A stretch of DNA of 12,316 nt, taken from a bacterium. Lineage in GTDB: Bacteria; SAR324; NAC60-12. Positions 7,200-9,135 of this stretch are shown here, piece by piece; position 1 is the stretch's first letter; each line of letters starts with the position of its first letter. The stretch is taken from positions 1-12,316 of the forward strand of contig CBDDTI010000133.1 of NCBI GenBank assembly GCA_965233585.1. The letters run 5' to 3'. A program made the position numbers and the translations under genes. The notes under the pieces were generated by a model. The model saw only the letters and a list, made by a program, of their open reading frames with translations, had not been told where the DNA came from and made no database searches.

Positions 7200-7377
7200 G
7201 TTAATGCACTCATTGCTCGTGAATTATCAGGATTTACCTACACTCGTTCACTAACAATGAACGAGAAATTTCAATACTGCACGAGACCGCCGAGTGCGGT
7301 ATTGAAATTTTCGAGTTCATTGTTGGTGAACTCGTGCAGGTAAATCCCGACAATTCACGAGCGATGAGTGCGTTAAC
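7200..7377. mobile_element. 178-bp imperfect palindrome (element Y)
   Basis: GTTAATGCACTCATTGCTCGTGAATT... / ...AATTCACGAGCGATGAGTGCGTTAAC, pairing nearly to the centre CACGAGACCGCCGAGTG. Confidence 0.8.
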
Positions 7378-7398
7378 ATTTTTATTATTCAAACCACG

Positions 7399-8576
7399 GA
7401 GGGAGTCCACAGGGGTCTATCTTAGGGCCCCTGCTGTTCAACATCTTCATGAATGATCTGCATGAAGTGCCTAAAAACACCACTTTATCCACATATGCCG
7501 ATGACACTCAAATATTTTACGCGGGTAAAAATGAAGTGGAACTCGAACAGGCTATTAGCACTGATCTTAAAAGGGTTGATGAATGGTTTGATAAGAACAA
7601 AATGCAAAGAAATCCCAGCAAATACACAACTATTGTATTTGGCAATCTACGAACTGGTCCACCAAGATTTGTATGCGAAAACACAGTCATCCCCTTAAAC
7701 GAAAAGGTGGAATTGCTTGGTGTTACGATTGACAAAAAGTTGAAATTCGATGCGCACGTAGCAAAGATCTGTCGTCGAGTAAGTCAGCAAGTGGCTGTAC
7801 TGAGGAGGATGAAGAAAATGCTGCCGTTCGAGACGCGTATGAAGCTGTACCAGTCGTTCATTGTACCGCACTTCAATTACTGCGCAGAAACATGGAACGT
7901 CTGTAGCAAGGGCGCAACCACTAAGTTAGAAAAACTCAATGAAAGAGCACTGAGATTTGTTTATAGAGATTATAGCTCGTCGTATGAAAGGCTACTTAAA
8001 CAATCTGGCTATCAAACGCTGTTAAATCAGAGATTGTCAAAGATAGTGACTTCTGTATACAAAATAGTTAACAGGCAGGGTGTGTCAGAATCACTGTGCG
8101 ATCTAGTGGAACTAAGGGAAAGTAATTATAATCTTCGAGGAGACAAAATCTTGACATTACCAAAAGTAAATACTACTAAGTACGGACTTAAATCACTCAG
8201 ATACGAAGGAGCCAATCTGTGGAATAAACTACCGAATGAATACAGAAAAGCGGACTCTTACAAACTGTTCAAGAAACAGATATCAGATATGGATTTGGCT
8301 GGCCGCTACATGTCGTAATCACATGCTGATATATTTTAAAACATTTTGTATATTTTATAGTACAATATTTAATAATCTTAGAAACATTGTAAATAGTATC
8401 TTTTTTATCTTTTTCAGTATTTTTATGTATCATTTTCATTACTTTTTCCCTTCATTATTATTATTATTACTATTTTGTTTTGTGACTATTCCTGTAAAGT
8501 AGCTGGTTAGCTAAGTGTTTGGTCACGTTAATAAACTTACTTACTTACTTAATAATAAACTTACTTTACTTACTTT
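7399..8576 (+). mobile_element. 5'-truncated non-LTR retrotransposon, CR1/L2 group
   Basis: RT C-terminal half, AT-rich 3' UTR, stem-loop, AATAAA plus (ACTT)n tail; ACG on both flanks (7396..7398, 8577..8579). Confidence 0.9.
7407..8318 (+). pseudogene. LINE ORF2 fragment: reverse transcriptase C-terminal half (open frame, N-truncated)
   Basis: PQGSILGPLLFNIFMNDL, YADD, LLGVTID.KL.F..H, LY.SFI.PHF.YC..W and LWN.LP motifs. No stop between 7407 and 8318. Confidence 0.92.
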
Positions 8577-9135
8577 ACGCGGGATGTTGGAAGAACACGA
8601 GAAGAGTTCGTAAATCACGAGCCACAGGCGAGTGATTTACGAACTCTTTGAGTGTTCTACCAACATCCCAAGTGGTTTATCACCCTATAAACCATAGAAA
8701 CTTGTGGTCTATTGCTTTTATATAATAATTTAGAAGACGCGCGATTTTTCAGAGTGTTTACCGGCACAATAACCCACAGCTGATTGACCGATCAGAGCGC
8801 GTGCATTGATTTGGTTATTATACAACAGAGTATAAAACATAGAAAAAACGTGTTTTATTGTTTTGTGCACGTAAAATCTATATCATAAAGCAAATTAAGA
8901 AGCCTAAGCAGTGTATTACACTGTGAAAAAACACTCTAGGCATTTGGTAACACTCGAAAAATGTAGAAAACTCTCGCCTGCGATTCGTGTTTTCTACATT
9001 TCGCTCGTGTTCTCAAATGCCGGTCTTGTTTTATCACAGTGTAATACACGGCTTAGGCTCCTTTTTTTTTAAGTAAACCATTTTCTTATATCATTTATAT
9101 TACCTGTATTCATGTTTTTTTCGTTATTTCTGCAG

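Follow-up and report, generated by a model that had tools for sequence, protein, structure and literature searches.

Strand-specific tandem G·A loops in the terminal hairpins of short coral repeats with likely Crypton-type relatives

Why should the long palindromes of different repeats be broken, again and again, by the same two-base mismatch? The question is raised by a 12,316-nucleotide (nt) stretch of DNA (the window; contig C133 of an assembly of 747 contigs and 12 Mb that is filed as the SAR324 bacterium NAC60-12), in which three short elements, here called Y, Z, and X, contain long palindromes. A first-pass annotation, made from the letters alone, had remarked that the mismatches in these palindromes are non-random, with CGAG standing opposite CGAG, and had proposed that one strand is selected to fold as single-stranded DNA. 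The palindromes exist at all three elements (Table 1), the motif positions given were exact in 13 cases out of 13, and the folding of Y, compared with that of shuffled sequences, has z = -15.6. Arm-versus-arm alignments of the window copies bear out the remark as well: most two-base mismatches are GA where pairing needs TC, and the complementary form, TC/TC, is found in X and in an element at 1830-3140. Our reading, which we favor by a little over an even chance, is that Y, Z, X, the hairpin at 2975-3133, and the element at 10530-10780 are short, non-autonomous members of one coral DNA transposon superfamily, that the single gene of longer relatives is one for a Crypton-type recombinase, and that the strand on which the loops read GA/GA (the GA strand) folds on its own.

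The whole assembly was scanned for hairpins with arms of at least 25 pairs, at least 75% paired, and a loop of at most 60 nt. The 1024 hairpins recovered contain 907 isolated 2x2 mismatch loops, of which 411 are TC/TC (229) or GA/GA (182); the next type accounts for 35. In context, CGAG/CGAG occurs 105 times, CTCG/CTCG 102 times, and ATCT/ATCT 73 times, and other variants keep pyrimidine-GA-purine (Y-GA-R) on both arms, as do CGAA/TGAG and its complement. Sheared G·A pairs are favored by the pyrimidine-GA-purine context. When the hairpins were clustered into 346 groups, GA/GA or TC/TC made up 330 of the 489 2x2 loops in 38 clusters (296 hairpins) and 6 of the 305 in 307 other clusters (666 hairpins). 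Because the class is defined by possessing such loops, the meaningful point here is the bimodality. Among families with at least four copies, 21 of 58 belong to the G·A-loop class. GA/GA loops are far above chance, and they are general in this genome. Standing apart from these is family 1 (62 hairpins of about 450 nt, e.g., C413:19578-19960), with one ATCT/ATCT loop (73 copies) that reads AGAT/AGAT on the opposite strand; this tandem G·A loop in a different context is probably a single inherited mismatch.

The DNA of the window is that of an animal: it consists of probable exons, repeat-packed introns between them, and a reverse-transcriptase fragment. Some 8.5 Mb of the assembly, in small contigs, behaves as coral DNA in its repeat families, its recombinase transposon, and its reverse-transcriptase fragments, and the public sequencing runs that contain a relative of the transposon on contig C338, described below, carry the label coral metagenome. 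All 296 hairpins of the G·A class lie in contigs shorter than 50 kb (8.5 Mb); the 15 contigs at or above that length (3.5 Mb) have none. The signature flags animal contigs within a bacterial genome bin.

The mismatches are a property of families as well as of single copies. Consensus sequences were made for 20 families, each copy being oriented by its own loops, and the palindromes remain imperfect in all of them, including those of Z and X (16 copies each). In the Z consensus the core between the two CGAG sites is fully paired save for exactly two GA/GA loops; both recur in the X consensus, there on the opposite strand. At least one tandem G·A loop is present in 20 of 20 consensus sequences. 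In 18 of them the first is 3-5 nt down from the tip, with further loops mostly 19-28 nt apart; these spacings vary, and a fixed helical periodicity was therefore rejected. Each hairpin has two to eight direct copies of CGAG. A second asymmetric loop recurs 24-45 nt from the tip in five families (Z, 7, 10, 20, and 34), in which CGCG faces CAAG to give one G·A and one C·A mismatch; the window copy of Z has it at 8578-8583/8665-8672, where the first-pass annotation had not reported it.

The tip is a second, independent marker of the strand. In 16 of the 20 consensus sequences it is a C(GNA)G triloop on a GC-rich mini-stem of 2-4 bp, on the same strand as the GA loops (e.g., GCGAAGC, GCGTAGC, and CCGCAGG); of the other four, two enclose C-GCA-G in a looser tip, one has GATA, and one departs from the pattern. 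The mini-stems vary by family (GC, AC/GT, CC/GG, GCC/GGC, AAGC/GCTT, and others) with pairing kept, and the spacing of three CGAR-like words at the tip ranges from 5 to 8 nt while the intervening mini-stem stays paired. Likewise, comparison of Z, X, and Y shows that the long stem between loops differs in sequence by family and retains its pairing. The signature is thus chemically specific as well as strand specific, combining Y-GA-R tandem loops with a GNA triloop, and we regard it as very likely that the G·A motifs are a selected feature.

Polarity is close to uniform. Of 91 copies with two or more loops, 89 have all of them on one strand and 2 are mixed, and once the consensus sequences are oriented by their loops, the hairpin is followed on the GA strand by a conserved 3' tail in 20 of 20. 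The hairpin, 110-200 nt long, occupies the extreme 5' end of the element on that strand. The first-pass annotation had expressed this as a rule, hairpin and then CCAATC on the GA strand, which holds only for the tail as a whole; the orientation of CCAAT is not fixed. Across the 20 consensus sequences CCAAT is forward in eight, reversed in six (two have both), and absent from eight, and in the recombinase-bearing copies it reads on the opposite strand. In several short families a CCAAT, a GC-rich stretch, and a TATA-like end are all found on the GA strand. Flips do occur: the tip is inverted in one X copy and in one metagenome copy. A rolling-hairpin replicon of the parvovirus kind was considered and rejected, since such a replicon should give similar numbers of flip and flop forms, and here polarity is uniform apart from the two mixed copies and isolated flipped tips.

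Insertion sites and recombinase-bearing relatives

The short elements are about 300 bp long. For 38 insertions a paralogous empty site was available, and none has a target-site duplication. By eye the junctions are ambiguous by 0-3 letters. The ends of BLAST alignments overlap by 0-7 AT-rich letters, because the AT-rich left flank often resembles the AT-rich 3' end of the element. A TTAA or TAA target duplication, of the piggyBac or Harbinger type, is ruled out by the empty sites. An argument for single-strand exchange from the absence of a spacer duplication was dropped, since the likeness between left flank and 3' end leaves room for a short imperfect core. Read on the GA strand, the elements start with a TTAAC-like sequence and finish in ..CTAA, ..TATAA, or ..TAAAA; the bases preceding the insertion are A (16 of 25) and then T (15 of 25).

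At two sites, copies of a host repeat have received insertions of more than one family at an identical position: families 3, 7, 15, and 18 in one case, 7 and 20 in the other. At such shared sites, e.g., ..GGGGAATAT(T)^CTCGGATATTCCCC.. and ..GGGCACTAT^GGGCTGATAGTGGCCC.. (insertion at the caret), there is a small inverted repeat with a 6-nt spacer and the element sits exactly on the 5' border of this spacer, a layout that recalls a recombinase core site and that most target sites do not have. Over 28 distinct sites the inverted-repeat score of the target has a mean of 3.0, as against 1.48 for random sites, and is 6 or more in 3 of 28, as against 0.9%. A target in the form of a hairpin or of a recombinase core, an inverted repeat whose spacer measures 5-6 nt, is clear only at a few multiply used sites, and no conclusion was rested on it. 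Within the elements, inverted repeats bounding the tail were detected by a strict test in 10 of 38 families, compared with 1 of 38 on the control side. If the two ends of an element are joined, the tail inverted repeats lengthen the hairpin stem, as judged by eye in families 4 and 45 only.

The connection to an enzyme comes from a longer element on contig C338, to whose locus we aligned contigs from three RNA-library runs and one DNA run; contigs of this kind carry no information on strand, ends, or level. One contig of the DNA run is an empty site: it joins position 1823 of the locus to position 4085, skipping 2261 bases, with three ambiguous letters. The C338-type copy is an insertion polymorphism. 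Other public-run contigs have different flanks at exactly 1823 and 4085, and internally deleted forms of the element are present as well. The empty site, the other flanks, and the deleted forms together identify the recombinase-bearing unit as a recently mobile element. Contig depths, when summed, are about 20-fold higher over the element than over the flank, which is a rough hint of copy number only. The mobile unit so delimited comprises an inverted repeat, an upstream region bearing CCAAT, the recombinase gene, an inverted repeat, and the hairpin. The empty-site allele now gives exact ends for an element of Crypton type, and the hairpins add a conserved end structure.

The only long open reading frame (ORF) within the 2261-bp unit matches DUF3504 (4.6e-20), Phage_integrase (9e-9), and a QRICH1 N-terminal-type domain (9e-5). 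In its translation GLRG, HSAR, GH, and NNY are candidates for the catalytic residues (R-H-R-Y), placed by eye within or near the Pfam-aligned region 207-278. A PDB sequence search with the C338 protein returned no match. What looks like an intron in this ORF is a private 228-bp palindromic insertion (2330-2557) with 11 repeated letters; a real intron is ruled out because the contigs of the DNA run and of the three RNA-library runs are all without the 228-bp stretch.

Relatives of the C338 protein were found on seven contigs. Three of these loci, C338, C255, and C400, have a class hairpin no more than a few hundred bases beyond the 3' end of the ORF, and in all three the GA strand is antisense to the gene. 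With one class hairpin per 29 kb, the chance of such an adjacency works out at about 0.7% per locus. Moreover, recombinases across these loci are only 24-30% identical to the C338 protein, so a single recent capture of the gene does not account for the association. The hairpin at C400 falls in one cluster with 10 further hairpins of family 16. Tyrosine recombinases were one of the two classes of mobilizing enzyme suggested in the first-pass annotation, and it is this class that the long relatives encode. It is likely, in our judgment, that the short repeats are non-autonomous elements of Crypton type.

Two wider searches bear on the reach of the association. A search for long partners by means of distant inverted repeats yielded, beyond C338, only nested insertions that contain no recombinase. 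Ten metagenome loci all proved to be the same family-45-type element or too short, so that they provide no cross-species test of generality. A separate observation concerns G000:C628:12800-12961, where a different palindrome, free of G·A loops, stands about 460 nt downstream of a decayed DUF3504 fragment; each of its arms has CTGATTGG/CCAATCAG words.

How the G·A motifs may act

On the GA strand an element reads as three parts: the imperfect hairpin at its 5' end, the tail, and the AT-rich 3' end. This strand, antisense to the recombinase gene, may fold alone. Replication or transfer could expose it as single-stranded DNA, or, within a circular intermediate, it could form the more stable of the two arms of a cruciform. 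Folding would start from the tip module as its nucleus. The G·A loops would keep the helix continuous on the GA strand only, and in this way could tell the recombinase the strand and the register, as unpaired features do in the attC sites of integrons. In a variant of the scheme, the G·A motifs may show where synthesis of the complementary strand is primed, as happens in single-strand origins of phages and plasmids. We put the chance that a strand-specific DNA fold is how the G·A motifs act at about even. As a tentative and somewhat bolder proposal, which we hold at rather less than even, a DNA hairpin made of sheared G·A modules and folded on one specific strand would serve animal Crypton-type transposons for recombination or for the priming of replication, as a eukaryotic counterpart of attC recombination.

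Folding energies agree with the direction of this asymmetry. DNA parameters make the GA strand the more stable of the two in 18 of 20 consensus sequences (mean, -1.9 kcal/mol) and in four of four window copies. With RNA parameters, the GA strand is favored in 20 of 20 consensus sequences (mean, -7.0 kcal/mol) and in three of four window copies. In a toy hairpin the two strands differ by only 0.4 kcal/mol, and the DNA parameters may or may not credit sheared G·A pairs and GNA triloops. Published chemistry, as available in excerpt, is favorable: d(GCGNAGC) mini-hairpins contain a sheared G-A pair, form with GNA loops only, and melt at 70-76 C, their RNA form being markedly less stable (PMC13037366); the closing pair affects the stability of the mini-hairpin (PMC3201870); and the stability of B-DNA is unperturbed by two adjacent G-A pairs (PMC11014236). 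The earlier proposal that one strand is selected to fold as single-stranded DNA is supported in part. Of the three outcomes that the first-pass annotation had named as refuting it (perfectly palindromic consensus sequences, no strand bias, and equal folding of both strands), none was observed, and the GNA triloop and the link to a tyrosine recombinase fit it as well; the fold itself, as single-stranded DNA or a cruciform, stands here as a prediction.

Several points weigh against the reading of these repeats as self-folding Crypton relatives. Tyrosine recombinases normally act on duplex DNA. The single-stranded, cruciform, or circular form that the reading calls for is a predicted one, and the public runs supply only contigs, which are blind to it. 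Four of the seven contigs with a recombinase relative have no adjacent hairpin of the class; on one of the four, C5, the match ends about 20 bases from the end of the contig, and on another, C280, about 400 bases lie beyond the match. For Y, Z, and X themselves, the 12 Mb yielded no partner that bears a recombinase. The C338 element resembles three short relatives at 74-75% identity over the hairpin only. Family 45, to which the proven empty site belongs, has a single TC/TC loop and no GNA tip. The tail inverted repeats pass the strict test in just the 10 families already mentioned. The asymmetry in the DNA model is small, two consensus sequences reverse it, and the RNA parameters favor the GA strand by more. 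Finally, an excerpt of a 2026 review states that the mechanism of Cryptons is undemonstrated and describes an assumed double-stranded circle (PMC13565253).

The main rival, although an unlikely one, takes its strength from the duplex. Substituting GA for TC would make the two arms differ, or would create direct CGAG motifs for a protein, and would serve to give direction or to avoid a perfect palindrome; that the letters are G and A would be incidental. The usual preference of tyrosine recombinases for duplex sites and the double-stranded circle of the published model (PMC13565253, in excerpt) count in its favor. The direct CGAG copies, two to eight per hairpin and mostly 19-28 nt apart, could suit a protein on one face of a duplex, and some shared targets resemble duplex core sites. 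However, any mismatch would break the symmetry, and yet those observed are almost only G·A in Y-GA-R (330 of 489), the second type being CGCG/CAAG. The tip on the same strand is, according to the excerpted account, the only trinucleotide loop type known for very stable DNA mini-hairpins (PMC13037366). Moreover, the spacing of the CGAR-like words in the tip ranges from 5 to 8 nt while the pairing of the mini-stem is kept, and duplex marks leave unexplained why a palindrome of 100-200 nt is found at one end only, why almost every asymmetry is G·A in the contexts of greatest stability in folded DNA, and why that strand also has the GNA triloop at its tip.

Less probable is that the hairpin acts in a transcript, as a small-RNA precursor or a protein-binding tandem G·A element, with the DNA palindrome as a mere template. 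The RNA energies point the same way in every consensus sequence; contigs from three RNA-seq runs span the whole C338-type element, hairpin included, and a microRNA-seq run contains 69% of its sampled words; and the CCAAT, GC-rich stretch, and TATA-like end of several short families lie on the GA strand. Contigs from RNA libraries, however, prove neither transcription nor strand, and neither expression nor strand follows from those seen here. A GA-strand transcript would need a promoter outside the element, given that the gene is encoded on the opposite strand and that the first base of the element already belongs to the hairpin. Nor is the orientation of CCAAT conserved, and the mini-hairpin is, as reported, markedly less stable in RNA than in DNA (PMC13037366, in excerpt).

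A shade less probable again is a Helitron2/Helentron-like or other HUH-mobilized element, the recombinase gene being a passenger. The layout of the TC strand resembles the asymmetric terminal inverted repeats and 3' hairpin described for Helitron2 (PMC3627910, in excerpt), no target duplication is made, and a single-stranded stage would explain strand-specific folding naturally. Against this, the 2261-bp unit bounded by the empty site carries the recombinase ORF only, and the divergent recombinases at C338, C255, and C400 share both position and orientation relative to the hairpin. The coral hairpins measure 110-200 nt as against about 20-30 nt. Helitron_like_N (PF14214) was unmatched in the 12 Mb, a weak point because the coral genome is partial and the control genomes were silent too.

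That the swaps are functionless by-products of small inversions or template switching within palindromes is very improbable: flips do occur (one X copy tip, one metagenome copy tip, and arm-to-arm changes at two sites of the window Y), but 20 families with differing stems have the loops in their consensus sequences, where the distance from the tip is conserved and the polarity relative to the tail is always the same, and the hairpin families outside the class have 6 of 305.

Among mechanistic ideas, the one put forward in the first-pass annotation fits the data best, and it is one that we infer. If the fold is indeed the substrate, this would be the first structured site of single-strand type for a eukaryotic tyrosine-recombinase transposon, and Cryptons would not move simply as double-stranded circles.

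Elements and neighboring features of the window

Table 1. Positions of the hairpin elements and of the retrotransposon fragment in the window
Feature	Position	Strand	Details
Hairpin of the 1830-3140 element	2975..3133	-	GA strand is minus; plus-strand TC/TC at about 2993 and at 3020/3088
X, remainder of tail	7131..7193	-	GCGC and CTGATTGATTGG; from 16-copy alignment against the window sequence
Element Y, 5' part	7194..7393	+	178-nt hairpin 7200-7377; GA/GA 7262/7313 and 7282/7292; TC/TC 7243/7331
Non-LTR (long terminal repeat) retrotransposon fragment, 5'-truncated	7394..8576	+	Reverse-transcriptase ORF 7404-8315 (RVT_1, E 4.3e-13); 3' tail with short tandem repeats
Element Z	8577..8825	+	Hairpin remnant 8581-8669; GA/GA 8598/8649 and 8618/8630; CCGCAGG-type tip
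Element X, main part	8826..9075	-	GA strand is minus; hairpin 8892-9068; plus-strand TC/TC 8953/9005 and tip
Family-4 element, hairpin mostly deleted	10530..10780	+	Right-arm base 10558-10569; tail inverted repeats 10577-10600/10750-10773

Z and X are two repeat families of about 250-300 bp that abut tail to tail in the window. A single 500-bp element with two hairpins was ruled out, since other copies have one or the other. The main part of X includes a portion of its tail (8826-8891), and the rest of the tail is separated from it by the insertion of 7194-8825 after ..TTTTAT. Because the missing 5' tail of X is found at 7131-7193, all of 7194-8825 (the head of Y, the fragment of a long interspersed nuclear element [LINE], and Z) lies inside X. 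It follows that the GATTGG before Y (7155-7165), which the first-pass annotation had assigned to Y, belongs to X instead, as the 16-copy alignment of X confirms. The window thus preserves a nest within X, made up of the head of Y, the 5'-truncated LINE, and a Z that has lost about 46 nt of its left arm, at the 5' end of its hairpin.

An inverted repeat begins behind the Y hairpin, at 7378-7393, and the remaining tail of Y is lost at the LINE fragment, which stands between Y and Z and is outside the hairpin class. The loop of opposite polarity noticed earlier in Y is present in the window copy. It is not a feature of the family: two other full copies of Y have CGAG on both arms at four of four sites, so that only the window copy has the reversed loop and a perfectly paired outer site. 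The tail of Z (8670-8825) has a dyad, CTGATTGACCGATCAG, at 8780-8795, then a GC-rich stretch, and is AT-rich at its end. Elsewhere in the window, 2957-2990 is an uninterrupted copy of the target that family 11 uses at other loci. The string CC-GA-CACT-GA-GG at 10558-10569 was read to the letter, and turns out to be the remnant of a family-4 hairpin that has lost its left arm and tip to deletion; the tail of this element has CCAATCAG and then GCGCGCGCG.

We take the open stretches at 3982-4116 and 11336-11602 and other short ones on the plus strand to be probable exons of a host gene, presumably diphthine synthase-like. A Pfam search of two of these probable exons gave no match. Within the same introns, 6295-6585 and 355-610 are repeats of further types. 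One of the two has terminal inverted repeats of 32 nt and long C/G runs; the other is a 244-nt foldback, 91% paired and free of G·A loops, and falls in the control class of hairpins.

Comparison with known systems

The closest relatives by gene content are the CryptonA elements of animals (Kojima and Jurka 2011, PMC3212892, in excerpt), which likewise have a single tyrosine recombinase gene with similarity to DUF3504 and Phage_integrase (here in the long relatives only), make no target-site duplication, leave abundant short non-autonomous derivatives, and are known from cnidarian hosts. What differs is the end: the coral elements have at one end an imperfect hairpin of 110-200 nt whose G·A loops are strand specific, and many families have tail inverted repeats, whereas the excerpted survey found no terminal repeats in animal Cryptons and boundaries that are hard to define (PMC3212892). 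Hairpins and palindromes go unmentioned in that excerpt of the reference survey (PMC3212892) and in a 2026 paper on DUF3504 elements (PMC13465315). Crypton hairpins were undescribed in the literature searched; Repbase entries or the supplement of PMC3212892 may contain such sequences without describing them. We read the terminal hairpin and inverted repeats as an undescribed Crypton feature, and as no ground for excluding these elements from CryptonA. They tie an undescribed end structure to a transposon class of undemonstrated mechanism, and they allow dozens of otherwise unclassifiable 300-bp coral repeat families to be recognized and oriented.

Foldback elements and DDE-type miniature inverted-repeat transposable elements are similarly short, abundant, palindromic, and intronic. 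They duplicate their target and have inverted repeats at both ends, whereas the coral palindrome lies wholly at one end; the empty sites, with no target-site duplication, rule this type out. With IS200/IS605 and Helitron2 (PMC3627910, in excerpt) the coral elements share the absence of target duplication, an asymmetric body, a hairpin at or near one end, and a strand-specific structure. Those systems, however, use HUH nucleases and short hairpins, whereas the coral hairpins are five to ten times longer and the gene is a tyrosine recombinase. The d(GCGNAGC) mini-hairpins (PMC13037366, in excerpt) supply the match for the tip, a C(GNA)G triloop on a GC mini-stem, as seen in 16 of 20 consensus sequences; they are known from single-strand origins of phages and plasmids and from synthetic DNA, and in the literature searched they are not reported as a hallmark of a eukaryotic transposon end.

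The nearest analogue in function is the attC site of integrons. There, a folded single strand is recombined by a tyrosine recombinase, IntI, and unpaired features set strand and orientation (PMC2727003, PMC5027507, and PMC4792948, all in excerpt). Both kinds of site are imperfect palindromes of variable sequence, associated with a tyrosine recombinase and provided with strand-specific unpaired features. The attC sites, however, are bacterial and 50-150 nt long, with extrahelical bases and R and L boxes, and their single-strand use has been shown experimentally. The coral hairpins have tandem G·A pairs, a GNA triloop, and an enzyme of Crypton type, with neither IntI nor R and L boxes, and their fold is a predicted one. 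The likeness would therefore be one of functional logic and not of family membership. A folded attP site is also used by XerCD in the CTX phage. If the coral fold is likewise a substrate, then structure-specific recombination by tyrosine recombinases would reach from bacterial integrons to animals.

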